Part shown: piece by piece, positions 2,763-63,232 of the stretch
How positions within the stretch are numbered: the stretch's first letter is position 1
How the letters are laid out: the number at the start of each line of letters is the position of its first letter
NCBI RefSeq assembly: GCF_963921235.1
Contig: NC_086097.1
Span: 149,980,001-150,044,000, forward strand
Origin: Mobula hypostoma
Taxonomy: Eukaryota
Length of the DNA: 64,000 bases
Reading direction: 5' to 3'
Program-made: the position numbers and the translations under genes
Notes under the pieces: generated by a model
Database searches by the model: none
What the model saw: only the letters and a program-made list of their open reading frames with translations
Told to the model about the DNA's origin: nothing

Positions 2763-3468
2763 TAGATTATCCAGTCGTTGCTGTTTGTGGGATCTTGAGG
2801 CAAAATTTCCTCATGTGTTTCCTGTAGTTTATAAAATCATCATTATGTTTTGTAATGTTGTGAAAAATGCAAAATATATTCATGATCTGTAAAGAAAAGA
2901 TTTCATCCTTTTTAATCTGCTGAGGGAGTTTTCTGTCTTCATCTTGGCAGTGGTATAAATTCCACCTCCAGCCAACGTCACACAGTCACTGGAGGAGCTG
3001 AGAACACAATCAGCAAGCACAAAACAGTGCACCTGAATGCCTTCCCTGGCATTGCAGGTCAGCTTGAAAAAGTCTCTGAACAACAACCATCAACATATCC
3101 TGTAGAACCAGGCGAGCCAACACACTTGACCACTGTTATATCACCATCAGGGGATTTACCATGACATCCCACACACACATTTTGGGAAGTCCGTTCACAT
3201 GGCTGTACTTCTTCTTCCAGCATGTAGGCAGAGACTAAAGACCACAGCACCAATGGTGAGAACCAAGAAGGTACGGTCAAGGCAAATGGAGGAGCACTTA
3301 CAGGACTGCTTTGAGTCGGTGGATTGGAAAATATTCAAAGATACATCTTCAAATCTGAATGAATATACCATAGTTGTCATCGGCTTCATCAAGCCCTGTG
3401 TGAATGAGAATATGTATTTGAGAATATACCAGACATACCCAAACCAAAAGCTGTGGATGAACCAGGAG

Positions 3469-3722
3469 CACACATCAAAGTTGCTGGTGAACGCAGTAGG
3501 CCAGGCAGCATCTCTAGGAAGAGGTACAGTCGACATTTCAGGCCGAGACCCTTCGTCAGGACTAACTGAAGGAAGGTCATTCAGTTAGTCCTGACGAAGG
3601 GTCTCGGCCTGAAACGTCGACTGTACCTCTTCCTAGAGATGCTGCCTGGCCTGCTGTGTTCACCAGCAACTTTGATGTGTGTTGCTTGAATTTCCAGCAT
3701 CTGCAGAATTCCTCGTGTTTGC
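3469..3722 (+). mobile_element. Short fold-back PLE insertion with 13-bp TSD
   Basis: Inverted arms about 3469-3570 / 3580-3681, unpaired tail 3682-3722; TSD gatgaaccaggag at 3456-3468 and 3723-3735. Confidence 0.93.
3586..3623 (+). ncRNA. Minimal type I hammerhead ribozyme motif (PLE-borne)
   Basis: Stem I UAGUC/GACUG, CUGACGA core (3591-3597), extra A, stem II GGGU-CUCG-GCCU, GAAA, minimal stem III with palindromic ACGU, predicted cleavage after GUC (C3618). Confidence 0.82.
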
Positions 3723-6204
3723 GATGAACCAGGAGATTTGCATTCTGTTGAAGGCTAGATCTGTGGCATTCAGGACTGGTGTCCAGAACTCTACAAGCAG
3801 TCCAGGTACGACATGTGGAATGCTATTTTAAGAGTTGATCTTTCTCTCTCCTATATGTCTCCTTGTCACCACCAAAAATTTTGGCAACAATAGTTTTGTT
3901 TTCTAGGGTGTGGGTTGTGCCTACCCACACAGTCTTGGGGATAGAGAGAGCAGGCCAGTGGGCCAAGCATGCATCCTTGAGGTGCGCCAGTGTTGATTGC
4001 TGGTGTCAATTGAGGTTAGGGAAGGAATAGGATGCATATCAGCTCTGGCAGTGTTTGCAGGCCATTACTTGTTACAAAACGAAAGCTAATGTCTCAAAGC
4101 CTTTTATGCACGCATTGAAAGGGAGAACAAAACTATACCTGTGTAATCCTGCAGCTACTGGTGACCCTGTGATCTCTGTCTTCAAGGCCAACATAAGAAC
4201 ATCTTTCAGGGGGGTGAATCCTATCTAGGCATCAGGCCGTGATGATGTACCTAGTAGGTCTCTGAAAACTAAGCCAACCAACTGGTGGGAGCATTCAAGG
4301 GTATCTTCATCCCTCACTTCTACATTCGGTGGTTTCCACCTTCTTTAAAAGGGCAACAATCATACCAGTGCCCAAGAAGAGCAGGGAGAGCTTCCTCAAT
4401 GACCCTCTCCCAGTGGCACTCTCATCTACCGTGATGAAGTACTTTGAGAGGTTGGTCATGGTTAGAATCAACTTCTACCTAAGCAAGGCCCTGGACCTGC
4501 TGCAATTTGTCTTTGCCACAATATACCTACAGTGAATGCAATCTCACTGGCTCTCCATTCAGCCTTTAATCATCTGGATACCTAATAGTAATACCTATTC
4601 AGGCTGCTGACTACTGATTACAGCTCAGTGTTCAACACCATCATACCCTCAGTACTAGTTCCAAACCGTGGGCCTCTGTACCTCCCTCTGCAACTGGAAT
4701 CTAGTCTTCCTCACTGGGAGGCCACAGTCTGTGTGCATTGGAAATAACATCTCCTCCTCTCTGACAGTCAACACTGCCGCACCTCAAGGATGCGTGCTTG
4801 GCCCTCTGCTCTACTCTCTCCACACCCACTATTGTGTGGCTAGACACAGCCTAAATGCCAAAAAACACAACTGTTGTTGGCAAAATTTCTGATGGTGACG
4901 AGGATACAAACAGGAACGAAGTAGATCAGCTGGTTCAGTGGCGTTGCAACAACCTTGTCCTCTACATCAGTAAGAGCAAGGAATTGATTGTGGACTTCAG
5001 GCAGAGGAAGTCATAGGAACACACACCAGTCCTCAGCAGCGGAAAGAGTGAGCAATTTCAAGCTCCTGGGTGTCAATGTCTCTGAAGATCTATTCCAGGC
5101 CCAACATATTACTGGAAATACAAAGAAGGCATGACAACAGCTATATGTCATTAGGAGTTTGCAAGACTTGGTATGCCACCAAAGACACTCGCAAATTTCT
5201 GCAGATGTACCGTGGAAAGCATTATGAATGGTTGCATCACCATCTAGTATGGAGGGGCCTCTACACGCAATCTGAAAAAGCTGCAGAAACTTGTAAATTC
5301 AGTCAGTTCCATCATGGGCAATAGCCTCCCCCGCATCAAGGACACTTTCAAAAGGTGATGCTGAAGAAATGTGGCATCCATCGTCAAGAACCCTTATCAC
5401 ACAGGATATGCCCTCTTCTCATTGCTACCATCAAGGAGGAAGTACAGGAGCCTGAAGACACACACTCAAAATCTCCAGAACAGCTTCTTCCCCTTCAACA
5501 TCAGATTTCTGAATGGACAATACACACATGCACACTACCTCAGTATTTTCCCTTTTTCGCACTACTTGTTTAATTTTTTTTTACATATCCTTATTGCAAT
5601 TCATAGTTTTTATTATTGAAATTACAGCTGCCGCAAAACAAAAAAAATCATGACATACAGCAGTGATATTAAACCTGGTTCTGATTTAGTTTTGTTCATC
5701 TAAATCAACTGTCGTTTAGAGCCACAGAAACCAAAGGGAGTTGGACTTTCCATCTCCTGCTTTTTCCAGGATCAATATTTATTTTATGTACTTAATCAGA
5801 TGTATACACGTAGCTTTGCTTTGCCATGTGAACGTTGTGAACTAAAGTTCAGTACTATTATGACTTAGAACTGCATTTCTGCTCCTAAACTGCTGTAAGG
5901 CAGAAATCTGAATTAAAGGAGCATTACTTTTATGAAAAAAAACCTATTTGGCAAATAACTATGTTAGTATTTTTTCTAGTGAGAGGATGCTATATGTAAT
6001 TTTCAAGTTCAAATTTATTGTTGCCATAGGCATGCATATGCCAGGTATAAATACCCTGACAATTAGGTTTATGCAGCAAATGTTGTGGAGTTTGTTTGCA
6101 TTGATTTTGTGTTCAGATGGAGTCTTATAGCTTTGAGTGTGAAGGTTCTGGATTCAAATTTTATTCTTACATTTAATCTAAAAAAATTGCTTCAGTACTC
6201 TGCA

Positions 6205-6799: not shown

Positions 6800-7020
6800 T
6801 TGAAGGTACTAGAAATCTGGAGTAACATACACAGAATGTTGGAGGAGCTCAGCAGGTCAGGCAGCATCTACGGAAAAGAGTAAACAGTCAACGTTTAGGG
6901 CTGAGAACCATCACCAGGTCTAGAAAAAAAAATCCAGAGGCCAGAATAAAGGGAGGGTGGGAGAGGGAAAAGCATAAGGTGATAAATAATAAATGAATCC
7001 ATTTGACAGGGGCAAGGTAG
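6800..7020 (-). mobile_element. Older PLE 3' terminus
   Basis: tgttggaggagctcagcaggtcaggcagcatcta...cagtcaacgtttagggctgagacc resembles the PLE terminus, with a decayed hammerhead. Confidence 0.7.
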
Positions 7021-7024
7021 GAAG

Positions 7025-10000
7025 GTGGGAGAGAGGAGAGGGGAGTGTGAGCAGTCAGAGGATGTGGTACATATTGGTACCAATGACATAGGTAGAAAGA
7101 GGAAGGAGGTCCTGAAAACAGAATATAGGGAGTCAGGAAGGAAGCTGAGTAGCAAGACCTCTCGGGATTGCTGCCCGTGCCATGCGGCAGTGTATAGGAA
7201 TAGAGTGAGGTGGAGGATAAATGCGTGGCTGAGGGATTGGAGCTGGGCGCAGGGATTCAGATTTCTTGATCACTGGGACCTCTTCTGGGGCAGGTGTGAC
7301 CTGTACAAAAAGGATGGGTTGCACTTGAATCCCAGGGGGACCAATATCCTGGCGGGGAGGTTTGCTAAAGCTATGGGGGAGGGTTTAAAGTAGATTTGCA
7401 GTTGGGTGGGAACTGAAGTGAAGAGGCAGAGGATGGGGAGATTGAAGCACAAGTACAGACAGCTTGTAGGGCGTTTGTGAGGAAGGATGGTCAGATACTG
7501 CAGCAAAGATGCACTCAGTCTTATGGTTTCCAGCAGCTGCAGATTTTCTCTTGTTTGTGGTTTAAGATGTGTCTATTTTAATGCAAAGAGTATCATAAAC
7601 AGGGCAGATGAATTTAGGGCGTGGATCAATACGTGGACTATGATGTTGTGGCCATTACAGAGACTTGGATGTCTCAGGGGCAGGACTGGCTGCTGAGTGT
7701 GCTGGGCTTTAGATGTTTCAAAGAGGGCAGGAAGGAAGACAAAAGAGATGGGGGCATGACATTGCAAATCAGAGATAGTGTCACAGCTGCAGAAAAGGAG
7801 GAAGTCATGGAGGGATTATCTACTGAGTCAGTGTGGGTGGAAGTCAGAAACAGGAAGGGGGCCGTAACTCTACTGACATCCCAATAGTAACATGGACATT
7901 GAGGAGCAGATAGGGAGGCAGATTCTGCAATAATAATAGGGTTGTTGTGATGAGATATTTTAACTTTTGTAATATTGACTGGCATCTCCTTAGAGCAAGA
8001 GGTTTAGAAGAGGTGGTGTTTGTCACATGTGTACCGGAAGGTTCCCTGACACAATATGGATAAGCGAACTGGAGGAGAGGTTGTACTTGAATTGGTATTG
8101 GGAAATGAACCTGGTCAGGTGTCAGGTCTCTCGGTGGGAGAGCATTTTAGAGGTAGTGATCACAATTCTATCTCCTTTACCATAGCGCTGGAGAGGGATA
8201 GGAGCAGATAATTTGGGAACGCAACACATATCAAAGTTGCTGGTGAACGCAGCAGGCCAAGCAGCATCTCTAGGAAGAGATACAGTTGACGTGTTGGCCG
8301 AGACCCTTCGTCAGGACTAACTGAAGGAAGAGCTAGTAAGAGATTTGAAAGTGGGAGGGGGAGGGGAGGTCCAAAATGATAGGAGAAGACAGGAGGGGGA
8401 GGGATGGAGCCAAGAGCTGGACAGGTGATTGGCAAAAGGGATATGAGAGGATCATGGGACAGGAGGCCCAGGGAGAAGGAAAGGGGGGAGGGGGGAAAAA
8501 CCCAGAGGATGGGCAAGGCGTAGAGTCAGAGGGACAGAGGGAAAAAAAGGAGAGAGAGAGAAAGAATGTGTGTATATAAATAAATAACGGATGGGGTACG
8601 AGGGGGAGGTGGGGCATTAGCGGAAGTTAGAGACGTCAATGTTCATGCCATCAGGTTGGAGGCTACCCAGACGGAATATAAGGTGTTGTTCCTCCAACCT
8701 GAGTATGGCTTCATCTTTACAGTAGAGGAGGCCGTGGATAGACATGTCAGAATGGGAATGGGATGTGGAATTAAAATGTGTGGCCACTGGGAGATCCTGC
8801 TTTCTCTGGCGGACAGAGCGTAGGTGTTCAGCAAAGCGATCTCCCAGTCTGCGTCGGGTCTCGCCAATATATAGAAGGCCACATCGGGAGCACCGGACAT
8901 AGTATATCACCCCAGCCGACTCACAGGTGAAGTGTCGCCTCACCTGGAAGAACTGTCTGCAGCCCAGAATTGTGGTAAGGGAGGAAGTGTAAGGGCATGT
9001 GTAGCAATTGTTCTGCTTACAAGGATAAATGCCAGGAGGGAGATCAGTGGGGAGGGATGGGGGGGACTAATGGACAAGGGAATCGCGTAGGGAGCGATCC
9101 CTGCGGAAAGCGGGGGGGGGGAGGGAAAGATGTGCTTAGTGGTGGGATCTCGTTGGAGGTGGCGGAAGTTACGGAGAATAATATGTTGGACCCGGAGGCT
9201 GGTGGGGTGCTAGGTGAGGACCAGGGGAACCCTATTCCTAGTGGGGTGACGGGAGGATGGAGTGAGAGCAGATGTGCGTGAAATGGGGGAGATGCGTTTG
9301 AGAGCAGAGTTGATGGTGGAGGAAGGGAAGCCCCTTCTTTTAAAAAAAGAGGACATCTCCCTTGTCCTGGAATGAAAAGCCTCATCCTGAGAGCAGATGC
9401 GGCGGAGATGGAGGAATTGCGAGAAGGAGATGGCATTTTTGCAAGAGACAGGGTGAGGAGAGGAATAGTCCAGATAACTGTGAGAGTCAGTAGGCTTATA
9501 GTAGACATCAGCATTTAATTGGGGTAGCGGAAAATATGATGGTCTTAGGCAGCAACTTGGGAGTATGAATTGCATGGCAGAAATCTGGCAAATGTTCAGG
9601 GAACATTCCCTATGTTCCATTGAGGCAGGGAAAGGATGATAAGGTAAAAGAACGATGCTGTACAAAGGATATGGAACATCTAGTTAAGAAGGAAAGAAAA
9701 GATTATGAAAGAAACTAGGTACAGATAGAGTTCTAGAAAATTATGAAGTTGCTAGGAAGGAGCTTAACAATGAAATTAGGAGAGCTAGAAGAGGCCATGA
9801 GAAGGCCTTGGCGAGTAGGATTAAGAAAACCCACCAGGGTATTCCACAAGTACCTGAAGAGCAAGAGGATGAGCCGTGTGAGAATAGGACCAATCAGGTG
9901 CGATAGTGGAAACATGTGCTTGTAGTCAGAAGAGGTAGCAGAGGTACTTAATGAACACTTTGCTTCAGTATTCACCAGTGAAAAGGACCTTGACAATTGT

Positions 10001-14627: not shown

Positions 14628-15127
14628 GTGAATAACCTGCTTGCCGTTCAGGATGTTTGGAAATGAGTAGCTGAACTGTGCCAGAGACAGAGCTACACAC
14701 CAAGTCACCAATTAATGGTGTTATTGAAAAGGAACATTTCTCAGGAACGTAAACATGAGGAATTCTGCTACTACTGCTGCTTGTTGGGAGAGTGACAGGA
14801 ATAAAATCAAACCAGTCAGTATACTGGACATAATGCAGGAGAGATGGATTATTTGCTGAATGGCAAAAGTCCCATAATGAAAGATACGAAAGATGTCTAA
14901 TGTTGAAAGTAACACGTCAGTGGCACTAAAAACTGCATTGCAAGAAGATTTAAACAAACAAACCAGAGCTTCCAAGATAAGATTAGCCTCACCATTTCCT
15001 TTGAAACCAAACTTTTTCTTTGGGTCATGATCCCTTAATTTTAACAGGTTCAAAAGGCTACCATTTGCTTCCTTACAACTTTGTCCCCTATAGTATGTTT
15101 CAAAAACTTCACATCTCCAGCAGTGCA

Positions 15128-16005
15128 AAGTTCAAAGTTCAAAGTAAATTTATTATCAAAGTACATACATGTCAACTTATACTACCTTATGATTCATTTT
15201 CTTCCAAGCATTCATGGTAGATGCAAAGAAGCACCACTGAATCTATGAAAGCAATACATACAAGAAGGACAAATAACCCATGTGCAAAAGGCAATCAGCT
15301 GTGCAACTGCAAAAAAAAAATAAGCAATAAATATCAAGAACATGGATGAGGAATCATAGAGTCAAGAAAAGTACAACAGGTCCTTTGGCACATATTGAGT
15401 CCTTGAAAGTAAGCCCATAGGTTATGGGAACAGTTCAGTTTGGGGCGAATAAAATTGTCAATTCTGATGATTGAGGGGTAATAACTGTTCCTGAACCTGG
15501 AGGTGTGGGTCCTGAGACTCCTGTATCTCCTTTCTGATGGCAGCAGGAAGAAGAGAGCATGACCTGGATATGGGAGTCCTTGATGATGGATGCTGCTTTC
15601 TTGTGACACCACTCCTTTTAGATGTGATTCATGGAGGGGAGGGTTTTACCCATAATGGACTGGTCGGTATCCACTGCTTTTTGTAGGCTTTTCCTTTCAA
15701 GGGCATTGTGTTTCCATACCAGGCTGTGATGCAACCAGTCAGTATACTCTCCATCGCACATCTGTGGAAGTTAGTCAAAGTTTTAGTTGACATGCCAAAT
15801 CTTCCCAAGCGGCTGTGTTTTCTTTGTAATGCCACTAACACGTTGGTCTCAGGGCAGATCTTCTGAAATGATAATGCAGAGAATTTTAATTTCAGACCCT
15901 GTCCATCTTTGATTCTCCAATAAGGAAAGGCTCATGGACCTCCAGTTTCCTTCTCCTATAGTCAATAATCAGTCAATAAGTGGTCTTGCTGATATTGAGT
16001 GAGGT
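15128..16005 (-). mobile_element. Rex1/Babar 3' portion
   Basis: ORFs 15334 (LLPSERRYRSLRTHTSRFRNSYYP) and 15629 (ESILTGCITAWYG); tail aagttcaaagttcaaag. Confidence 0.85.
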
Positions 16006-26495: not shown

Positions 26496-28524
26496 CCAGT
26501 TCACAGCCATGGAGAAAGGAATGAACATTTGCAAGGCAGCGAGCGAAATCAGCCCGACCTCTGGCTTCCAATCTACTGAGCTGGCATTTAAATTCTCCAA
26601 GAACTGAGTCGTGCTACAGTCCAGGACACGGATCCAGACACCCTTATACACCTGGGCTGCCCCACCCGAGGCCACTCTCAGACTCAGCAAACTGGTTCAG
26701 CGCTTGGAGTGATCCAACCTCTTCAGCATCGACTCCTCTCCAAATCACTCACTCCATCTCCAGTAGTGATATGAACTCAGTTGGTGAACCCTGCAGCTCA
26801 AACATGTTGCGCATCGCAATACCTCAGCACGGCCCATCCCCTGAAACCGCCTCACCTCTGCCTGCTTCCTTACTGTCTGTGGCAATAACTCACCGCAGTT
26901 TGTTTCATGAAAGATGTTATAAATAAAGTTTTCAGTTGATTCTCTTGCCTTATGGTTTATCAGTAAGTAGTTGCACTTCTTCAGTAGCATCATCATAATC
27001 CAGATGCATATAGTGCTGCATGTATTCAGCAGGATAGAACCTACACAGTGAATGGTGGGGCACTGAGGAGTGTGGTAGTACAAAGGGATCTGGGAATACA
27101 GGTCCATAGTTCATTGAAAGTGGTGTCACAGGTGACTCTATGACTAATAATCATCGCAAGGCTTAGCAAGACAAACTGTGGGTTTGTTATTTCTAACACT
27201 TTAGTAAAAAAAATTGAACGTCTGAGGCAAACTCTTTCACTGCAAGAGAGACTTGCAAATTAATTTTTGTGTTTAAGTGAGTTGCATCATATGTATATAG
27301 CAATATAAAATATTTTGATATGATTTTAATGGTGTATGTTTGAAAACACATTGGGAAAATAATTACCAAATATTTTTCCATGTAATCTATGCTAAAGGAC
27401 TGGTCTTGGATTCCCCCAGTCTTTTATAAATACTCACATTTCCTGCCTTACCTCTGTTTACCCACGTCAAATGTAAAATGTTACAAAGTGGAATTAATAA
27501 AACTGTTAACTCTCTTCCCCGCATCTGGTTTTTGCTTCCTCAGATGTGGCTACATTATAAACAAAAGCACACATTGTTATATACCCTAGCAGGAAATTCC
27601 CTTAAGTTTTGCAAGATAATGTCCTAGATTTAGAAGAAAAAGGGATGAATATCTAGTGCATTGCAATCATAGTAAAGATTAGCAAAAAGCCTTGTTAAAT
27701 TTGCAACTTCTAACAAAATTACATGAGCTGTTGTGACTAATGATGCAGTTGATAGACGAAGAATCATTCCCTAAAACAGGGGTGTCAAACTACCGGCCCG
27801 CGAAGGGGTCCAATCCGGCCCTCGGGGTGATTTGGGAAAGAAAATGTGTATTCACGACTATTTATTATGTATCTGTACGGCAGCCGCTCTCTCTCCCACC
27901 GCTGTCTGTGCCGCCTGCTGCGCCGGCAGCTTGTTGTGTGTACTTAGAAAACAATAGGGTGCAGTTAACCACCCGCTGTGCATAAGCACCTACCACCCCG
28001 CACTGAAGACCACTGGGGCCCCACTTACGTCGTCAGACACAGTATAAACACACAGAGTACTCAGGTACGTAACACCTGTAGCAAGGCTGAGACTGTTTGC
28101 TGCTGTGGTTCAAGATGCTTTCCAAAAAAAGTTGACATCGAAGGTCAGATATTCAATGATAATTGGAAAGATCGTTTTTTCTTCTGTGAGGTCAACGGCA
28201 AACCTGTGTGTCTGATATGCTCACAACAAGTGGCTGTGGCAAAAGAGTACAATATCAAACGACACTATGAGACGTCGCACGGAGAAAAATATGACAAATA
28301 TGCAGGACGACTCAGAACGCCAAAGGTAAATGAGCTTGAAGCAGCTCTGAAAAAACAGCAATTAGTGTTCACCAAAAGTCGAGAGACTCATGATGGAGCT
28401 GTCAAGGCCAGCTATATTATTGCCAACAAACAACAGGAATTCTGCAGATGCCGGAAATTCAAGCAACATACATCAAAGTTGCTGGTGAACGCAGCAGGCC
28501 AAGCAGCATCTATAGGAAGAGGCG

Positions 28525-28562
28525 CAGTCGACGTTTCCGGCCGAGACCCTTCGTCAGGACTA
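28525..28562 (-). ncRNA. Minimal hammerhead ribozyme motif (left arm)
   Basis: Reverse complement reads UAGUC CUGACGA A GGGUCUCGGCCG GAAA CGUC GACUG. Confidence 0.75.
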
Positions 28563-29650
28563 ACTGAAGGAAGAGTGAGTAAGGGATTAGAAAGCTAGAG
28601 GGGGAGGGGGAGATGCAAAATGATAGGAGAAGACAGGAGGGGGGGGGATAGAGCCGAGAGCTGGACAGGTGATAGGCAAAAGGGGATACGAGAGGATCAT
28701 GGGACAGGAGGTCCGGGAAGAAAGACAGGGGGGGGGGGTGACCCAGAGGATGGGCAAGAGGTATATTCAGAGGGACAGAGGGAGAAAAAGGAGAGTGAGA
28801 GAAAGAATGTGTGTATAAAAATGAGTAACAGATGGGGTACGAGGGGGAGGTGGGGCCTTAGCGGAAGTTAGAGAAGTCGATGTTCATGCCATCAGGTTGG
28901 AGGCTACCCAGACGGAATATAAGGTGTTGTTCCTCCAACCTGAGTGTGGCTTCATCTTTACAGTAGAGGAGGCCGTGGATAGACATGTCAGAATGGGAAT
29001 GGGATGTGGAATTAAAATGTGTGGCCACTGGGAGATCCTGCTTTCTCTGGCGGACAGAGCGTAGATGTTCAGCAAAGCGGTCTCCCAGTCTGTGTCGGGT
29101 CTTTTATTGGTGAGACCCGACGCAGACTGGGAGACCGCTTTGCTGAACATCTACGCTCTGTCCGCCAGAGAAAGCAGGATCTCCCAGTGGCCACACATTT
29201 TAATTCCACATCCCATTCCCATTCTGACATGTCTATCCACGGCCTCCTCTACTGTAAAGATGAAGCCACACTCAGGTTGGAGGAACAACACCTCATATTC
29301 TGTCTGGGTAGCCTCCAACCTGATGGCATGAACATTGACTTCTCTAACTTCCGCTAAGGCCCCACCTCCCCCTCGTACCCCATCTGTTACTCATTTTTAT
29401 ACACACATTCTTTCTCTCACTCTCCTTTTTCTCCCTCTGTCCCTCTGAATATACCTCTTGCCCATCCTCTGGGTCACCCCCCCCCCGTCTTTCTTCCCGG
29501 ACCTCCTGTCCCATGATCCTCTCGTATCCCCTTTTGCCTATCACCTGTCCAGCTCTCGGCTCTATCCCTCCCCCTCCTGTCTTCTCCTATCATTTTGCAT
29601 CTCCCCCTCCCCCTCCAGCTTTCTAATCCCTTACTCACTCTTCCTTCAGT

Positions 29651-29688
29651 TAGTCCTGACGAAGGGTCTCGGCCGGAAACGTCGACTG
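29651..29688 (+). ncRNA. Minimal hammerhead ribozyme motif (right arm)
   Basis: tagtc ctgacga a gggtctcggccg gaaa cgtc gactg; the stem II closing pair is a mismatch in this variant. Confidence 0.75.
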
Positions 29689-31902
29689 CGCCTCTTCCTA
29701 TAGATGCTGCTTGGCCTGCTGCGTTCACCAGCAACTTTGATGTATTATTGCCAACAAAATAGCTGCTGCGTCGAAGCCATACTCAGAGGGGGAATTCATC
29801 AAAGCATGCATGCTGACGGCGGCTGAGCTTGTGTGCCCTGAGAAGAGACAGGCTTTTGGTAATTTCAGCGTGTCAAGAAACACTGTGGCAGAGAGAATCG
29901 GGGACCATGCAGGAGATTTGAACAGTCAACTAACAGACAAAGTGAAGTCACTTATTGCCTTCTCTATTGCAATTGATGAGAGCACCAACGTGACTGATGT
30001 AGCTCAGTTGGGAATATTTATTCGTGGTGTTGATGCATCTTTGAACGTCACCAAGGGGTTTGAGGAGATGGTGCCCATGACAAACACCACAATGGCGAAT
30101 GACGTTTTCTTCAGCCTCGTCGAGGCCTTGGACAGACTGGGGGTTGACTGGACTCACGCTGTCGGTGTGGCAATGGATGTCGCACCGTCCATGGTCAGGA
30201 AAAAGGCAGGTGTTGTTGCGAAACTCAGAGAGAAAATTCAGACACAGAATCCAGAGCAGAAATTCTGCAATTTTCATTGTATTATGCACCAAGAGGCGTT
30301 ATGTAGCAGGAGCCTGAAAATGGACAATGTTATGGATGTAGTAATCAAAATGGTTAATTTTATTGGAGCCAAGGGACTCAACCATCAGCAATTTGACTCT
30401 CTTTTGTCTGAAAGTAACATTGGACACGGCCTACCCTACCACACTGAAGTCCGCTGGTTAAGCAGACGGGTTGTGCTCAAGCGTTTTTTTCAATTACGTG
30501 CGGAAATTGAACTATTCATGAATGAGAAAGGGAAGCCAGTGGCAGAGTTGGATGACCCAGACTGGCTTCATGATCTTCCATTTTTGGTGGATGTAACAGA
30601 GCACTTAAATGTGCTTAATGTTAACATGCAAGGCCGCAACAAACTTGTTATGTAATACTACGACGGCAATCGTGCCTTTCAAATTAAATTAGGTCTGTGG
30701 GAGATGCAACTATCCCGGAGCAACCCAGCTCATTTCCCCTCTTTGCAGTCTGTGCGTGTCGCTCATGGGAATAACAACATGGACAGGTACAAGGACAAAA
30801 TATCACGGCTGAAAAGTGAGTTTCAGAATCGTTTCCAGGTCTTCACTCAGCTCGAGAAGGAATTCTCACTATTCTGCTCGCCGTTTGCCGTCAACGCAGC
30901 ATCAGATGTGCCGGAGGAACTCCAAATGGAACTAATTGAAATTCAGTGTAACTCGGCTTTGAAATATAAATTTGATACTGTGGGTCTGGACTCATTCTAT
31001 AAATACCTGGGACCAATGTACCCCAAGATGACAGACTTTGCCTCAAAGATCCTTTGCATGTTCGGGACAACATATCTCTGTGAGCAGGCATTCTCCATAA
31101 TGAACATTAACAAATCCAAACTGCGCTCGTAGCTGACACACAGACATCTAAATGACATTATGAAAATCACAACTGCCCAGAAATTGGTCCCTGATGTTGA
31201 CAGGCTGGTTAAAGCCAAGAGATATCAGCTGTCTGGAAGCAGCAAGTGAAAAATGAGTGACACTGTTCAATGCACTGCAACATGTAAGCAAAATGCATTA
31301 TGAAATATTGAGTGCCATAATATTGTGATTCATTTATTTTCTGACTATTCTATTATTGTAAATGTGATCACTTCAATAAAAATTAGAGGCTAACTGTGTT
31401 CATTGTCTGAGTTTGATTGCTGGAAGCAGGCTAATAAAAATTAGGTGCAGTTGTGTAGCCTACATTTACAATTTGTTTCGTTAGTCTACATTTGTGTCTG
31501 CTAATGTTTGATTTCAAATGGTTTATTAATGGAAAGGGTGTGGCTCCCAAAACAATCTTAGCCAAAATAGCATTGTTTTTTCTCTCTCTCATCACAACTT
31601 TCTTGTAGCTTACGACTATAAGTTAATATCAATCATAAAAATAATCCTTGCTAGGCAATCTTCTTCATAAGAAATGAAATTCGTAAAGTGAAACACTTTG
31701 TAGTTATAGAAGAGACTGACACACATGAGAGCAGGTTGAAAAAACGAAGGCAACGAAAGCTGTGGGAGCATGCGCGTGTGCATTCGCACGTGCACAACGG
31801 ATCTGACCTGCATGAAGTCGCATTTTGCCTAATCCAGCCCGTGACCTAAAATGAGTTTGACACCCCTGCCCTAAAATATATCTCTGATGAGACTTTGCTC
31901 AT

Positions 31903-37936: not shown

Positions 37937-40761
37937 TGTCAGATATGGTCCAAGTGCGGAGAGTGGGAGGCTGAAGCGGGTCGATAGTTTACAGACTTTA
38001 ATGCGAACAGAGTTAGAGGGAAAAGAAAACAATAAACACTAGGCCAAACAGGGTCATTAACGAAAACGCTCAAGTGCAAAACTAGATGCCAACGCCCTGG
38101 CTGAAAGGAATACCTAAATGCAAAACGAAAACTGCTAGTCTTCAGTGTCATTTGACTCAATAGTCCACTTTCTCAGGCAAGGCCGAATGCAAGCAGGCAG
38201 CGTAATGCTGTTGTGCTTTGCTCAAGTCTGGACAGGAGCTACAAGGAAAAGAAGGGAGTTAAATACCGCCATAGTAATTAGCTGACATGAGCATATTCAC
38301 AAGCACAATTGCCAAATTTGCTGCACAGCCAGGTCTGTGGTTGTGACAGGGCCCTCTCCCTCGGTGCAGCTCCTGAAGCGCCACAGACCTGTGCCCGCTG
38401 GAAATCCCAGATGAGCGATTTGTCCAAGAAGACCTTGCTAGGATCCAAGAATGATCTTCAGGACCATATCCTCCCCAATACACAAGGTACTGGACCTTAC
38501 CACGTAGCCGGCAAGATGCCAGGAGGCACCACACTGTACAGACAGGGAACCATCTACCAAATGGGAGGAAGGGGAGGTGGGGTGACTTTGGCCAGGGGAG
38601 AGGTAGTAACCAGCTTGAGCTGGGAAACAAGGAACACTAGGTGGATCTTCATTGATGATGGTAGTCGCAATTTATATGAGACCTTGTTGATGACCTTTTC
38701 CACTACAAATGGTCCCATGTAGCATGGAGCCAATTTGGGGCTCTTCACTTCTAGGGGAAGATCCCTCGATGCCAACCAGATCTTCCCTCCTGGCTTGAAA
38801 GGCCTTACCTGTCGGCAGAGATGGTCAGCCTGCCGGGCATGTTGTTTCTGGGGGTGCAGCAGAGAAGCCCTGGCTTGTCTCCAGGTGTGCTTGTAGCGCT
38901 GGATCAACTGTTCAGCAGCAGGAACTCCTACATCAATCTCCTGGACAGGGAAGAGGGGAGGCTGGAATCCTTTCTGGCATTCAAAGGGGGACATAGCTGC
39001 GGAAGATGACTGGTGGTTATTGTGGGTGATCTCTGCCCAAACCAGCTAGAAGTTCCAGGACTTGGGGTTGGAAGAGCCAAGGAAGTGCAGGGTTGTCACC
39101 AAATCTTGATTCATTCTCTCAGTCTGGCCATTGGATTGGGGGTGGAAACCAAATGAGAGGCTGGCCATGGCTCCAACAAGAAAACAGAAAGTCTTCAAAA
39201 ATGGGATGTGAACTGTGGGCCATGCTCAGACACTATTTGAGGGAAGACATGGAGCCTGTATACATGAGGGTGGCAGTCTCATGAGCCTATGGGAGCTTAG
39301 AGAGGGCAATGAAATGGGCAGCCTTGGAGAATTGATCCACAATGACCAAAATGGTAGTGTTTCCATTAGACGGGGGCAGCCCAGAGGTGGGACCAGGGGA
39401 GGTGGGGCACAGGCAGCAGACATAGCAGACCCACAGGATGCTGACGTGATATCTTGTTTTGAGCAGAGATGGAACAGGCAGATATGAAGTTGTGGACATC
39501 CTGGGACATAGGTGGCCAACAAAATCATCTCTTAATAAACTCCTGGATCCATTGAATACCCAGATGGCGAGCCAGGCAGGAGGAATGATCCCATTCCAAC
39601 ACTTTGGAATGCGTTACAGCAGGGGCAAACAACCAGCTGGGTGGCACCCCACCCAGACCTGGGTCCAACTGTTGGGCGGCCCTCACCTTTGCCTCTATTC
39701 CCCAAGTCAGCAGAGCAGCAATACATGAGCAAGGAATGATGGGCTCTGGATCAGCATTGTCCTCAGGTCTGTCGAACTGCCGGGAGAGAGTGTTGACCTT
39801 GGTATTCCTGCTGCCGGGACAATAGGTGAGGATGAAATTAAACCGGGTGAAGAAGAGAGCCCACCGGGCTTGATGGGAGTTGAGTCTCTTAGCATCCTAA
39901 ATGTAGGAGAGGTTTCCCAACATCATAATTCCCCTCAGCTAGAGTCAAGCCATGAAAAAGAAAGGCAGAAGAGTACAGCCACTGTCCGTAGACGAGCGCT
40001 GAGAGAGGACACCTTTAATGCCTGCATCGGATGCATCCACCTTGACTATGACTGGCTGTGATGGGTCTGGGGCAGTGGTACAACATCACTTTAACTACAA
40101 AAATGTTTGGTTGGCATTGTCTGTGCAATAGAATCCTGCCGAGGTCTTCCTGGTGAGTATGTTTATGGGAGCCATGATAGAGCCAAAATTCCAGATGAAT
40201 AATAGTTCACAAACCCCATAAAGCACCACACCTGTTTGACTGTAAATTGTTTGGACCACTTTGTAACTGCCTGAACTTTACTAGGGTCCATTTGAACATA
40301 GGATGGGGTAAGTATATAGCCTCAAAACGACACCAGATTTCTCGAGGTTGGTGTACAGTTTATTTTCAAGGAGCTATCTGTAATCTCTGCAGACATGCTG
40401 GATGTGTTCCTGGTGAGAGTGGGAATAGGTAAGGACATTGTCTAATTATGAGAGAGAGAGAGAGAGCAAACAGGGTCATTAACTAAAACTCTCAAACACT
40501 ATGGCTGAAAGTTATATCTAAATACAAAATGAGTACTGCTAGTCTTCAGCATCAGTTGACTAGATAGTCCACTTTTCTCAGGCAAGGCCAAACGCAAGCA
40601 GGCAGCGCAACGTTGGTGTGCTTTGCTCAAGTCTCCACAAGCGCAACAATGTAAAGAAGGGAATTAAATACAGCCATAATTAAATAATAATTAGCTGACA
40701 CGTGCATATTCATGAATGCAATTTCTGAATCTTCTGCACAGCCAAGTCCGTGGTTGTGACA
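37937..40761 (-). mobile_element. Gypsy chromovirus (sushi-like) LTR retrotransposon, internally deleted
   Basis: 3' LTR 37937-38348 (TG..CA), partial 5' LTR about 40466-40761, TSD ataat (37932-37936, 40762-40766), PPT 38349-38364; integrase ILVIVDQFSKAAHF, GPFVVEKVINKVSYKLRLP; chromodomain QYLVYWGGYGPEDHSW. Confidence 0.92.
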
Positions 40762-48584: not shown

Positions 48585-50198
48585 TATATAATCACCAATA
48601 ATTATATATATAATCACCAATGTTGCAATCCACGGTAGCCAGACAAAGCTTACCAACCCAGTGCAATCCCTTGTTGAAGAGGTCAAGGTAGCCAAGGTAA
48701 GATCATTCTTGATGGTTCGAGACTCAAAAGACCCTGTCACCACTCCCAGCCGAATGTGAGATCAGGCAGGAAGTGGTCAGCCCGTGTAGCATTTGATGAG
48801 GCAGAGTCTAGATTGAAGCACAAGGAGCCGGTTGGGGCTACCCAGCTAGGCCAACAGGGACTTGGATGGACAACCCACAAGTGGTGGTCACCTTCTACAG
48901 GTAAGGAGTGCCGTGAGCTTGTAACACAAGAAATATGAGAGGTAGAAGTGGAGAAGAGGTTAGCTAAAACAGCTGGCCTGGCCAAACAAGGGGCTTGAAC
49001 CTGGTGGGAAAGTGTTGAACAACAACGTCTATCTTGGAATGTTCTGTGGCAGATGGAACCGCTCCGCATTTCTTTTCTATGCAGAGCAGCATGCGATCTG
49101 CTCCCAACACCTGCCAACCTCAGCACCTGGTATGAAGATAAGACAGACAGGTGTGCTGCTTGTGGCGAGAAGGGAACATTTCAATATATCTTGAGTGCAT
49201 GCAGAGTCAATCTTTCCAGCGGCAGGTACACTTGGAGACATAACAACGTTCTCAAAGTTGTAACAAAAGCAGTTGAGCAGAGAGTACTGCAGCACAACTT
49301 ATCTCATGCCCCATGCTGCACAGAACATCGCATATCATTTGTGAAAGAAGGCTCCAAGTCAAGGGTGTACAGCACAGGTTCACGATCAAGCATACTTTCT
49401 TCAGCCAATGATTGGTGTGTCAAGGCCAACCTGGATGGGAAAGGCAATTTCCCAGAGCAAATAGCTTTCACCACATTGCATCCAGATATAATCATATGGC
49501 CTGACACCAGTAGAGAAGTGGTTGTTTGTGAACTCACAGTCCCCTGGGAAGACAACATCGATGAAGCCCATGAGCGCAAGTTAGCCAAGTATGCAGAATT
49601 AAGATCAGAGTGCAGAGACAGAGGGTGGAAGGTCTCATGCCATCCATTCAAAGTAGGCTGCCGTGGGTTTATTACGTTCACTTTCCAGAAGTGGCTGTGT
49701 GACCTTGGCCTCACTAGAAGAGAGATCAAGTCAACCAGCAGGACTGTAGCTGAGTTAGCAGAGACAGGATCAGCATGGGTGTGGACCAAATATGTCCAGA
49801 GGGGCAGATAGTCAGACAGTGTAGACATATCTTGCAAACCCTTCAGTAGTTGCATAGACACCTGAAGAGTAGACTATCTGTTGGATGGAAGTGACCAACA
49901 ACTCTGATAGAGGCAGATGCCAAGTTTTTAAGCTCACCAGTGGGAGGTGGTGCTTTAGCACTGCTGGCCCACCACCTCGAGGGATTCTTGATCATAAGCG
50001 GGCCAAAACTCCTGAAGACAGCTGGTGGAGCAACTGATGATCCCACTGGTGATAGCACAGGACAGTTAACATCTTAGTCTATTTGTATTTTTGATTCTTA
50101 ATGTGATGACTGTATGGTCATCGAAGATCTCACCGTTAAAGGAATGGACGTCGTCATTGTATTTCAATGGACAACCAAGAAGAGAGAGAGAGAAGATG
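48585..50198 (+). mobile_element. R2/HERO-like non-LTR retrotransposon with restriction-like endonuclease, 5'-truncated
   Basis: ORF 49053..49811: CAAC...YILSAC zinc knuckle, RYTWRHNNVL, HPDIIIW...ELTVPWEDNIDEAHERKLAKY, KVGCRGF; interrupts a Rex1 tail; candidate TSD taatgtga (48577-48584, 50199-50206). Confidence 0.88.
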
Positions 50199-51319: not shown

Positions 51320-52870
51320 TCTCACAACAGTTGGCTGGAAGTTGTCTGGGGCCTGGTGGTACGTGTTTTCAGGCTTCTGTATCTTCTGTCCACTTGGGTG
51401 GGGTGGTGTATGGGAGAAGAAAGAATGTCTGGGATGGGTGGTGGCTTTGATTATGCTTGCTGCTTTACCAAGGCAGTGAGAAAGCAAAGTCCATGGAGTG
51501 TCCTGACGAAGAGTCTCGGCCTGAAACGTCGACTGTACCTCTTCCTAGAGACGCTGCCTGGCCTGCTGCGTTCACCAGCAACTTTCATGTGTGTTCCATG
51601 GAGTGGAGGTTGGTTTCCATGATGTGCTGAGCTGTGTCCACTACTGTCCACAGTTTCTTGTGTCTTGGGCAGAACAGTTGCACACCAAGCCATGATTCAT
51701 CTGGATAGGATGTTTTCCTTGGTACATCAGTAAAAAATGGCGAGGGCCAAATTTCCTCAGTCTTCTGAGGAAGTAGGAGCATTGGTGACCACATAGACAC
51801 CACTTTCTTGGCAGTGGTGTCCATGTAGTTGGATCAGGACAGGCTATCAGTGATATTCACTTCTAGAAACTGGAAGCTCTCAACCCTCTCCACCTCAGGA
51901 TCACTGATGTAAACAGGAGCAAGTGCACCATCTCCCTTCCTGTGGTCAATAACCAGCTCTTTTGTTTTGTTAACATTGAGGGAAAGATTGTTGCTATGAC
52001 ACAATGTTGCTAGGCTCTCTAGCTTTTTCCTGCACTCCAACTCAATGTTATTTGAGATGCAGCTCACTACAGTGATGTTATCTGCAAACTTGTAGGTGGT
52101 GTTAGAGCAAAATCTGGCCACCCAATCATGCTGTAAGTGTAGAGAGAATTGGATAGGGGAGTACCAGTGCTTAAGCTAATTGTGATTAAGGTGTTAATCC
52201 TATCATTACTGATTGAAGTCTGTTGGTCAGAAAGTAAAAGATGCAGTTACAGAAGGAGATATGAACTCCCATGGTTGTGAGTTTGGTAATGAGTTTGCTA
52301 GGAATAATAAAATGGAAGGCACAATAAACAAAGGTCTGACTTACAGTAGATGTATTTACTGTTCAGATGCTCCAGAGATGAGTGTAGGTCTAGAGATGGT
52401 ATGTGCAATAGACCTGTTTTGATGGTAGGCAAATTGCAGTGGGTCAAGATTGTCTGGGAAACTAGATATGATGCTTGACATGACCTGCCTCTCCACTACA
52501 TCATGTTAGATAGTAGAGTCACTGGGCTGTAACCATTAAGACACGTTATCTTATTTTTCTTGGGTCCAAAATGACAGTGGTCTTCTTAAAGCATGAGGGA
52601 ACCACAGCCTGAAACAGGGACAGGTTAAAAAATATCTGCAAGTACTCCTGCCAGCTGATCCACACAGGATCTATGGACATGACCAGCAACACCATCTGGG
52701 CTCAATACTTCTTGTGGGTTCACCCACTGGAAGCCTGATCTTACTGCGACTGTAGATTCAGGTGCACTGGAGACTGCCAGGGTGGCTGATGATAATTTGT
52801 TCCTTTCTGTTCAAAATGTGCATAGAATATGCGATGCTCATCGGGAATGGATGTGTTGTTGTTGGTGATG
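51320..52870 (-). mobile_element. Decayed Rex1/Babar LINE
   Basis: ORF 51834 YKFADNITVV...NNLSLNVNKTKELVID; ORF 51287 KAASIIK..THPRHSFF. Confidence 0.82.
51501..51594 (+). mobile_element. 94-bp PLE terminus (hammerhead + about 60 nt) with 11-bp TSD
   Basis: TSD tccatggagtg (51490-51500, 51595-51605); insert starts tcctgacgaagagtctcggcctgaaacgtcgac. Confidence 0.9.
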
Positions 52871-62209: not shown

Positions 62210-63232
62210 ACATATGGATGATATGAAGATAGACAGAGGGGGCAAGTAGTGTTGAGGAAGCAGAGAATCTGCAGAAGGACTTAGGTAGTTTAGGACAATG
62301 GACAAAGAAGTGGTAGATGGAACATAGTGCAGGGAAGTGTAAGGTCATGTGCTTTAGCAGAAGGAATATAGGCATAGCACACACATGAAGGATCTCGGCC
62401 CAAAACGTCGACTGTACCTCTTCCAATAGATGCTGCCTGGCCTGCTGCGTTCACCAGCAACTTTTATGTGTGTTGCTTGAAATTCCAGCATCTGCAGATT
62501 TCCTCGTGTTTGCGTTTGAATATAGGCATAGACTATTTCTAAATGGGGAGAAAATTCAAAATCAGAGGTGCAAAAGGACTTGTGAGTCCTTGTGCAGGAT
62601 TTCCTGAAAGATAGCATGCAGGTTGAGTCGGTGGTAAGGAAGGCAAATGAATTTCAAGAAGACTAGAATATAAGAGCAAGGTTGTAATGCTGAGGCTTTA
62701 TAGGATATCAGTCAGACAGCACTCTCTGAGGCCCCTTTTCTGAGGAAAAAAATGTGCTGCTATTGGAGAGTGTCCAGAGGAGGTTCATGAGAATAGTACC
62801 AGGAATGAAAGGTTAACGTATAAGGAGAGCTTGATAGCTCTAGGCTTGTACCCGCTGAAGTTTAGAAGAATGAGTGGGGATCTCATTAAAACCTATCGAA
62901 TATTGAAAGGCCTAGACAGAGTTTTTGTTTCGTATACTGGGTGAATCTAGAACTAGAGGGTACAGCTTCAGAATAGAGAGATGTCCATTTAGAACAAGAT
63001 GAGGAGGAATTTCTTTAGCCAGAAGGCACTGAATCTGTGGAATTCATTGCCGTATTTAGCTATGGAGGCCAAGTCATTGGTATACTTAAAGCAAAGTTCT
63101 TGATTAGTCAAGGGATCAAAGATTACAGAGAGAAGCAAGAGAATGGGTTTGAAAAAGATAATAACTGATGTAATGGTAGAGCAGACTCAATGGGCCAAAA
63201 TGCCTAATTCTGCTCCTATGTCTTACGGGTTT
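62210..63232 (+). mobile_element. CR1 RT C-terminus and 3' end, interrupted by short PLE
   Basis: Close match to 55630-56546; tail gcctaattctgctcctatgtcttacgg. Confidence 0.85.
62378..62517 (+). mobile_element. 140-bp PLE terminus with 14-bp TSD and 9-nt inverted stub
   Basis: TSD gaatataggcatag (62364-62377, 62518-62531); begins cacacacat, then tgaaggatctcggcccaaaacgtcgac...cctcgtgtttgcgttt. Confidence 0.9.

Follow-up and report, generated by a model that had tools for sequence, protein, structure and literature searches.

Introduction

An inverted copy, a tail of 30-40 nt and a palindromic junction are published features of Penelope-like element (PLE) insertions (PMC3846280, PMC8557442, PMC11167929). 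In the general PLE layout described in PMC8557442, an inverted 5'-truncated copy lies by the 5' end, a 30-40-bp tail is found at one end only, and a hammerhead resides in the terminus. The inverted-pLTR insertions of PLEs with an endonuclease, such as Pen2a_Av in Adineta vaga, likewise consist of head-to-head copies with a palindrome at the inverted junction, an optional one-sided tail (31 bp) and a target-site duplication (TSD) round the whole unit, and self-priming has been invoked for them (PMC3846280). For the Poseidon element PAc of Anolis carolinensis, both target strands are cut and extended in vitro, and RT begins at two sites, the tail being the sequence between them (PMC11167929). 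The formation of the inverted structures and the completion of the second strand are stated to be still open (PMC8557442, PMC11167929). In L1-associated fold-back, 2 bp of homology let a 3' end form a small hairpin, from which an inverted duplicate is primed in a TSD-like frame (10.1101/2024.12.14.628481; PMC10191854), and twin priming and fold-back are named as separate processes (PMC10191854).

Here we report the analysis of a 64,000-nucleotide stretch of the Mobula hypostoma genome (hereafter the window), in which positions 28415-29758 hold a genuine and young hairpin-shaped insertion of 1.3 kb that a Penelope-type element has placed in a transposon that was already dead. Two 5'-truncated copies of a Neptune-type PLE, joined head to head, make up the insert. 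Its layout is a known PLE habit, and its length and symmetry alone stand out. In Pen2a_Av-type insertions a short inverted pLTR (about 180-220 bp) lies beside a long body, the palindromes measure 18-38 bp and the TSDs 8-10 bp (PMC3846280), whereas here the entire insert is palindromic, with arms of 630 bp that include part of the endonuclease frame, and is surrounded by a TSD of 16 bp. Equal arm length and the loop polarity reported below do not figure in the description of the general PLE layout in PMC8557442. The locus resembles the PAc system in its AT-rich target with ATT, in two RT start sites that delimit the tail and in the extension of both strands, as well as in the dispensability of the minimal hammerhead for PAc insertion; it differs in clade, and the work with PAc reconstituted neither second-strand synthesis nor inverted products (PMC11167929). 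PAc priming, moreover, needs no homology (PMC11167929), whereas TSD and element ends overlap by 3-4 bases per end in the large palindrome and by 0-1 in a smaller one nearby.

Structure of the insertion

The original prediction of a palindrome with a 16-bp TSD, arms of about 635 bp, a 10-nt loop and a one-sided tail was borne out, the tail measuring 37 nt against the claimed 40 nt or so (Table 1). A single TSD surrounds both arms, which supports the proposed single integration event. The arms (28468-29102 versus 29113-29742) differ by six substitutions in 630 aligned columns and by one 2-nt indel; all six substitutions are transitions, three of them at CpG, and each arm carries three. This divergence is not significantly different from the A-B flank divergence of 13/775 (p 0.35). 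As a background for exact repeats, 296 pairs of 91-base stretches were drawn at random from the window, and none of them shares an exact match longer than 11 bases.

Table 1. Features of the large insertion, its host transposon and the second palindrome in the window
Feature	Position	Strand	Description
Left TSD copy, 16 bp, exact	28415-28430	+	AT-rich, with ATT words; final 4 bases match the element 3' end as well
Tail, 37 nt	28431-28467	-	PLE sequence separating outer and inner 3' start sites
Tailed arm	28468-29102	-	5'-truncated PLE copy: GIY-YIG C-terminal half, 3' UTR, hammerhead motif
Minimal type-I hammerhead motif, tailed arm	28526-28561	-	By motif; position 11.1 (28538) unpaired with G10.1
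Loop, 10 nt	29103-29112	+	29105-29112 run on from the tail-less arm as element sequence; 2 bases without family match
Tail-less arm	29113-29742	+	5'-truncated PLE copy; end is the inner start site; overlaps right TSD by 3 bases
GIY-YIG endonuclease frame, C-terminal fragment	29113-29357	+	YIG motif to stop
Minimal type-I hammerhead motif, tail-less arm	29652-29687	+	By motif; G at 11.1 (29675)
Right TSD copy, 16 bp	29743-29758	+	Exact direct repeat of 28415-28430
Host hAT transposon	27777-31868	+	2764 bp without insert; 15-bp perfect terminal inverted repeats
hAT TSD, 8 bp	27769-27776 and 31869-31876		
Second insertion, same build	3456-3735	.	13-bp TSD; insert 3469-3722
Second palindrome, tail-less arm	3469-3570		102 bp
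Second palindrome, loop	3571-3579		9 nt
Second palindrome, tailed arm	3580-3681		102 bp
Second palindrome, tail	3682-3722		41 nt

The host has the perfect terminal inverted repeats and the 8-bp TSD of a hAT transposon; it is complete yet had already decayed before the PLE insertion. Its transposase matches the Spin-doc zinc finger in Pfam above the cut-off (E 1.2e-8) and Dimer_Tnp_hAT below it (E 0.0015), and the middle 304 aa have no Pfam match. Excision of the insert and one TSD copy leaves the transposase frame open across the site, as had been claimed, but the restored frame contains two internal stops (30653 and 31130) and its first ATG is out of frame. In other hAT copies, three contigs of run X9 cross the site uninterrupted.

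It is extremely improbable that the hairpin is a sequencing or assembly artefact, such as a fold-back read or a mis-resolved repeat, since this would neither yield a 16-bp duplication after which the transposase continues at the correct base, nor add a one-sided tail at the family 3' end and CpG-type arm differences. An artefact would agree with the finding that no record spans the junctions or the loop among the 15 of 206 joints and about 24 of 2588 loose ends listed, and with the best runs containing 0.71 of the words of 27000-28500, but the contigs of 254,729 further records lie outside this listing, and contigs drop rare variants of repeats. The span compared with the reads (26900-29140) comprises the left flank, the left arm and the loop, so that an empty allele could not appear there as a skip.

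Identity of the element

The proposed PLE origin of the insert was supported by a longer copy at 8620-9066, which is 93% identical to the arms. This copy matches GIY-YIG in Pfam (E 4.8e-5, 24 bits against a cut-off of 22.6), and it has the CCHH arrangement of EN+ PLEs, a pair of cysteines lying between its GIY-like motif and its YIG motif and a pair of histidines downstream. The arms hold the endonuclease from YIG onward only, and the arm fragment 29113-29357 by itself has no Pfam match. The insert carries no RT sequence upstream of the endonuclease; the frames lying upstream in neighbouring copies (361-687 and 9044-9514), which gave no Pfam match, resemble PLE RT and thumb in their motifs. 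Two other traits of EN+ PLEs are present, namely a tail at one end without poly(A) (37 nt in the insert, 41 nt in the second palindrome) and an inverted 5'-truncated copy with TSDs of variable length (16, 13, 14, 10-11, 9 and 7 bp around six of the 11 copies examined). The frame 8617-9066 contains a CX4CxxC linker upstream of GIY-YIG, and a zinc-finger-like CX2-5CxxC linker is the mark of Neptune and Nematis (PMC8557442). Our clade call, made from this linker rather than from a tree, covers Neptune or Nematis jointly; the presence of the linker speaks against the Penelope/Poseidon clade, which lacks it.

Hammerhead motifs and predicted RNA structure

A hammerhead on each strand had also been predicted. 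By inspection, both arms show the letters of the catalytic core together with a helix I of 4-5 bp, and the motif shares with the minimal hammerheads of metazoan PLEs the type-I core, an extra base between 9 and 10.1, a palindromic 15.2-16.2 and the short helix I (PMC4209133). The G10.1-C11.1 pair, described there as highly conserved, is G-G on both arms of the insert; in other window copies position 11.1 is T or C, as CpG decay predicts. The insert also differs from the PLE hammerheads of PMC4209133 in having one sense motif per strand, and so no cis dimer; self-cleavage by minimal hammerheads usually takes place as a dimer or with the help of protein. When the full insert is folded, whichever strand is taken, each of the 36 motif bases is predicted to pair with the other arm, and the predicted RNA duplex of the arms (630 bp, 97% paired) has an energy of about -1380 kcal/mol. 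The prediction thus stood as to the presence of the motifs, but not as to their integrity, with the G10.1-C11.1 pair broken and the motif buried in the duplex, and in the insert they are probably inactive.

No Rfam family matched the window at the gathering score. Within 28400-29800, a search with E up to 10 gave eight matches, all sub-gathering and none of them a hammerhead; seven lie at the hairpin centre, where matches to microRNA families reflect the hairpin alone. The structure of the element 3'-end RNA is no stronger than that of shuffles (z -0.25). The inner start site falls at a 10-nt hairpin loop of the predicted 3'-end fold.

Second palindrome and mechanism of formation

In both palindromes of the window (2/2), the tail-less arm runs beyond the turn and supplies the loop, with 8 of 10 loop bases in the large palindrome and 5 of 9 in the small one continuing the element from the tail-less end; this points to snap-back of the cDNA started at the inner site. 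The tail is not derivable from self-copying of the tail-less strand, and therefore a second priming is needed. Priming at both ends in one event is shown by the copy at 62378-62517, which has a 14-bp TSD, a tail-less stub of 7-9 bases and a tailed arm of 130 bases. The arms of the large palindrome end within 10 nt of each other and those of the small one within 9 nt, for which the chance is about 2% per event, assuming independent truncation uniform over 1 kb.

The formation that we regard as probable, with moderate confidence, starts with the snap-back of a cDNA begun at the inner start site, which a second cDNA, begun at the outer one, then bridges. During one integration of the Neptune-type PLE, the endonuclease would cut the two strands 16 bases apart, a spacing shown by the TSD, and both target 3' ends would prime synthesis, the first from the outer RNA 3' start site and the other from the inner site 37 nt away; the two ends themselves are seen, and their use in priming is suggested by analogy with the Poseidon element in vitro. 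The inner-site cDNA would run for about 640 nt, leave the RNA in an A/T run immediately 5' of the YIG codons, fold back and, by extension, copy itself in the sense direction. This self-copy may then anneal with the complementary outer-site cDNA on the other target end, and fill-in would produce a palindrome whose arms meet head to head and which has a tail on a single side, the six arm differences being mostly later mutations. In favour of snap-back, the family sequence provides an inverted match of three bases at the turn of the large palindrome, allowing for one substitution and one deletion. Several observations count against it. This match is imperfect; cDNA folding at this turn, run on the 8221 copy, gave no stable hairpin, and no inverted match accounts for the turn of the small palindrome. 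Furthermore, the polarity rule has n=2 with a 50% chance apiece, the arm variants fit one template or two of one subfamily equally, and the biochemistry comes from a Poseidon element, not Neptune.

Twin priming had been offered beside snap-back as the origin of the arms. Snap-back stands as a candidate, but twin priming of the L1 type is unsupported: on one RNA it produces non-overlapping inverted and direct pieces, whereas here one stretch of 630 bases is present in both arms. The L1 fold-back events duplicate the host flank, are rare (four events, 0.4% of somatic L1 insertions) and carry a poly(A) tail (10.1101/2024.12.14.628481; PMC10191854), whereas the PLE insert duplicates the cDNA itself.

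Two independent cDNAs, each copied from its own RNA at one target end, could instead have stopped at a shared RT drop-off and been end-joined head to head without snap-back, which we consider unlikely. Such a course has in its favour the copy 62378-62517, primed at both ends, and the close relative at 1-369, which departs from the intact sequence of the family at the very base where the insert loop does and suggests a preferred break site; the arm difference at 28879, moreover, is a common family polymorphism (56% of run X1 depth). However, it requires a drop-off site at every symmetric turn, 3571-3579 included, does not predict the shared loop polarity, and meets arm differences that resemble later decay. 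Shared variants do not separate the two readings. The original prediction took three variants common to both arms as the sign of one template; all three are present on both arms, but one of them, C at 28523, is widespread among family members (about 42% of run X1 depth). The nearest local copy has 361 columns in common with the arms. Not one of these groups the arms together against the two other copies, and the arms differ from each other at 4 and from that copy at 7 (Fisher p 0.55). Because no site sets the arms apart and one variant is family-common, the argument is weak, and the variants show a shared subfamily, not a single template.

A still less likely source of the hairpin is the RNA level or an older palindromic locus, through self-priming on an antisense transcript or RT of an RNA that reads through such a locus. 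For head-to-head copies, PMC3846280 explains junctions of this kind by self-priming with antisense RNA as the template, and PLEs copy non-element sequence between their termini. Against this, a 630-bp RNA duplex would be a poor template, the two window palindromes have different turns, and both outer ends lie at RT start sites, fitting priming at both ends.

An asymmetric inverted insertion may also have lost its spacer or longer arm later, with gene conversion keeping the arms alike. Asymmetric inverted junctions do occur in the family, as seen in an opposite-strand joint of run X1 (28520/28589), and conversion between the arms of palindromes is known. This course is nevertheless very unlikely: palindrome repair tends to remove symmetry rather than to create it, the TSD is intact, and there are two cases per 64 kb with loops of 9-10 nt each.

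Returning to snap-back, it is possible, though we propose it only tentatively, that symmetric copies record a fixed second-strand step of PLEs, in which the inner-site cDNA snaps back and its self-copy captures the outer-site cDNA. Long, near-perfect palindromes with short loops would then be made de novo in one step, with their turns at sites where RT tends to drop off, for example the A/T run that precedes the YIG codons. As the family is extremely abundant in the genome, thousands of young palindromes of graded age would be expected, a natural experiment on how PLE integration is completed and on how vertebrates tolerate or purge fragile palindromes and sources of hairpin RNA.

Consequences and genomic context

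The locus is ordinary in kind, a dead copy inside a dead transposon, and by itself changes little; its value lies in the clean mechanistic record that it keeps, including the loop polarity. Inverted Alus with a 12-bp spacer stall forks and break chromosomes in yeast and primate cells (PMC7999016). The insert palindrome (630 bp, 99% identical, 10-nt spacer) is of this type, and therefore much could be learned from how long such inserts survive. Consequences through dsRNA, with Dicer or ADAR, and through cruciforms are conditional. Among the runs listed for 27000-28500 there is no RNA one, and in run X16, possibly an RNA run, depth is zero at 27200-27799; neither result is evidence on expression.

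A 21-base family motif had no match in metagenome contigs or in viral contigs, and a look-up of 14724-15131 in the Atlas returned no result. Among 12 + 139 frames of the window, the 139 drawn mostly from 209 low-repeat frames with recognised-transposon frames left out, there was no host-gene match above the Pfam cut-off and no host exon. The frame at 24623-24922 matches Autophagy_act_C below the cut-off (E 1.2e-4) and is, judging by its motif, presumably a LINE fragment.

Structure of the palindromic insertion and its hAT host

The original prediction of a palindromic Penelope-like element (PLE) flanked by a target-site duplication (TSD) was confirmed as an observation, with arms of ~630 bp and the layout given in the table below, and the interpretation placed on it was supported in part. 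Between the two arms there are 6 substitutions over 630 columns, plus one 2-nt indel adjoining a G run. In a chance control of 296 random pairs of 91-base stretches, exact matches shared by a pair never exceeded 11 bases, and in the predicted RNA fold of either strand of the insert 97% of bases are paired. The flank and hAT context of the insert is borne out by other sequence runs; among the records listed from these runs, none covers the insert junctions or the loop. Internal evidence strongly supports the reality of the insert, and that it is an artefact seems scarcely credible.

Features of the PLE copies and the host transposon (window positions)
Feature	Position	Strand	Description
Exact direct repeat (TSD) of large palindrome	28415-28430, 29743-29758		16 bp; encloses 1312 bases
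Tail of large palindrome			37 nt, left of tailed arm
Tailed arm	28468-29102	minus	
Loop of large palindrome			10 nt, between both arms
Tail-less arm	29113-29742	plus	
Hammerhead motif	29652-29687; mirror 28526-28561		minimal type-I form, as described in the available text of PMC4209133
Host hAT transposon	27777-31868		2764 bp without insert; 15-bp perfect terminal inverted repeats; 8-bp TSD
Small PLE palindrome	3469-3722		102-bp arms (3 mismatches), 9-nt loop, 41-nt tail, 13-bp TSD
Stub copy	62378-62517 (62364-62531 with 14-bp TSD)		7-9-base tail-less stub facing 130-base tailed arm
Single tail-less arm	51490-51605		96 bp, 10-11-bp TSD

Once the insert and one duplication are removed, the transposase frame is open over the site, as had been predicted, and three contigs of run X9 are uninterrupted over the same site in other hAT copies. 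Stops at 30653 and 31130 persist in the restored frame, and the ATG at 28115 lies in a different frame. Because at no fewer than 18 positions of 27777-28430 (at least 2.8%) the hAT copy carries a letter other than that of the run X1 majority, versus a divergence of ~0.5% gathered per PLE arm, it was probably already dead when the PLE arrived. In organism A, one of three organisms behind the matching contigs, 702 bases of unique flank are matched with zero differences; a contig of organism B extends 102 bases over the left hAT boundary, with 13 differences in ~775 aligned bases; the match of a contig of organism C ends exactly at 27776, its 80 further letters do not fit, and this end is consistent with an empty hAT site. 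The hAT transposon is thus present at the site in A and B and apparently absent in C, and therefore arrived recently. The complete copy with its flanks (27769-31876) encodes a Spin-doc-type zinc finger, and across runs X1, X5 and X9 its family shows moderate depth.

Recurrence of the arrangement in the window

An inverted-repeat scan (arms of at least 25, gaps of at most 60) found two inverted repeats in 64 kb, both of this PLE family. The smaller, which with its TSD spans 3456-3735, has the same loop polarity as the large palindrome and lies in what we take to be an RTE-like LINE fragment. TSDs of at least 7 bp were found in 6 of the 11 PLE copies checked for flanking repeats, comprising two symmetric copies, one stub with a tailed arm and three single arms. 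The copy at 51490-51605 indicates that the inner of the two 3' start sites of reverse transcription can be used alone.

The general layout of the insert is already known for PLEs. The accessible portion of PMC3846280 describes head-to-head inverted copies with TSDs, an optional 31-bp tail and palindromes where the inverted copies join, an arrangement attributed to self-priming, and that of PMC8557442 lists, as features of PLEs in general, an inverted 5'-truncated copy and a tail of 30-40 bp on one side. PMC11167929, in the part available, shows a Poseidon protein cutting both strands of the target and extending each, with reverse transcription that begins at two sites; the spacing of these sites gives the tail. 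The palindrome is of this known kind, its arm length and symmetry being the notable points; fully symmetric long PLE palindromes and a loop-polarity rule were not found in our literature search, and older reviews, figures or supplements may show some.

Proposed mechanism of palindrome formation

Both outer ends of the insert are element 3' ends, one per start site, and therefore both target strands were primed, as were both ends of the stub copy. The arms terminate within 10 nt of each other, a coincidence expected in ~2% of events under an assumed model of independent truncation uniform over 1 kb. The loop (8 of its 10 bases in the large palindrome and 5 of 9 in the small palindrome) extends the element sequence on the strand that starts at the tail-less end, and this strand is by orientation the first-strand cDNA; for that reason it would be the tail-less strand that overshoots the turn and folds back. 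At the large turn an inverted match of 3 bases exists in the family sequence, given one substitution and one deletion, and untemplated A residues could equally serve. Since self-copying cannot supply the tail, the outer-site cDNA would have to anneal to the self-copy of the folded-back strand. We favour, with modest confidence, this snap-back of the inner-site cDNA, its self-copy annealed with the outer-site cDNA. RNA-level self-priming, or the copying of an older palindrome, appears improbable.

Later trimming of the insert is a very improbable account. That two cDNAs stopped at a shared drop-off site is rather unlikely, and is favoured by the relative at 1-369, which departs from the intact sequence, through an internal deletion, exactly where the templated loop ends; the A/T run at this point is a possible drop-off or cleavage hot spot for reverse transcriptase. 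Snap-back as a fixed step that mass-produces long palindromes is a tentative and somewhat doubtful extension of the favoured snap-back reading.

The internal deletion of the copy at 1-690, a close relative of the arms (7 differences in 361), fuses RT-region sequence to YIG codons. A 1.3-kb 5'-truncated copy at 8221-9512 has its 5' end ~20 nt from the upstream end of that deletion and its 3' end ~6 nt into the tail, and lacks a TSD of more than 6 bp.

Family assignment and shared variants

Of a GIY-YIG endonuclease frame the arms hold the C-terminal half; they also contain a pyrimidine-rich 3' region and the minimal hammerhead motif. A Pfam GIY-YIG match above cut-off and a CX4CxxC linker are found in the copy at 8221-9512, which shares 93% identity with the arms; by the linker criterion in the accessible text of PMC8557442 this predicted protein places the PLE with the Neptune or Nematis type rather than with Poseidon. 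The PLE family is extremely abundant, with a summed X1 depth of 2.6-6.7 million on the arm versus 8-15 on unique flank, depth not being copy number.

Variants shared by both arms had been read as evidence of one template. The similarity between the arms is indeed far greater than that of either arm to the 8221 copy (46/629 and 44/627 differences; p = 3e-9), but this does not extend to the copy at 1-369: in 361 common columns the arms differ at 4 positions and each differs from the copy at 7 (p = 0.55), and no site unites both arms against both other copies. This copy ends at the window edge, short of the three variants cited. Of these, the one among the positions listed, C at 28523, accounts for ~42% of depth in X1 and ~2% in X5 and X9, and G at 28615 for 28%, 2.5% and near 0 in X1, X5 and X9, respectively; the variants therefore seem to mark a PLE subfamily grown in organism A, hinting at an expansion after the split of A and B. 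Such growth fits a young insertion, and a single template is not proven by the variants. Within 28502-28823, several letters of the window copy are frequent in X1 and scarce in both X5 and X9. The 6 substitutions between the arms are all transitions; 3 lie at CpG and each arm carries 3, as later decay would give, and one of the 6 also occurs as a frequent polymorphism of the family.

Predicted consequences for RNA and DNA

A hammerhead had been proposed on each strand. The motif is present on both arms, but on each a G at position 11.1 breaks the conserved pair, and read-through from either side would transcribe the antisense arm first, with 36 of 36 motif bases buried in the predicted fold. 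Minimal hammerheads act as dimers or with protein help, according to the available portions of PMC4209133 and PMC11167929. On this basis a ribozyme role is unlikely. Any transcription of the site would yield long dsRNA; no host exon was found within the 64-kb window. With its 10-nt spacer and long, 99% identical arms, the palindrome resembles the replication-stalling inverted Alu pairs described in the accessible part of PMC7999016. The A+T content at its centre is only 45%.

Other elements in the window

A decayed Ty3/Gypsy-like element at 38259-40761, with ~300-bp direct repeats (38045-38348 and 40467-40761), contains a Tf2-type SH3 domain (Pfam E = 1e-15). An open frame of 270 aa at 48999-49811 has a weak zf-RVT match, and its C-terminal part resembles a restriction-like endonuclease of non-LTR elements. 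The frame at 7007-7393 resembles ORF1 of CR1 LINEs, an SGNH esterase.
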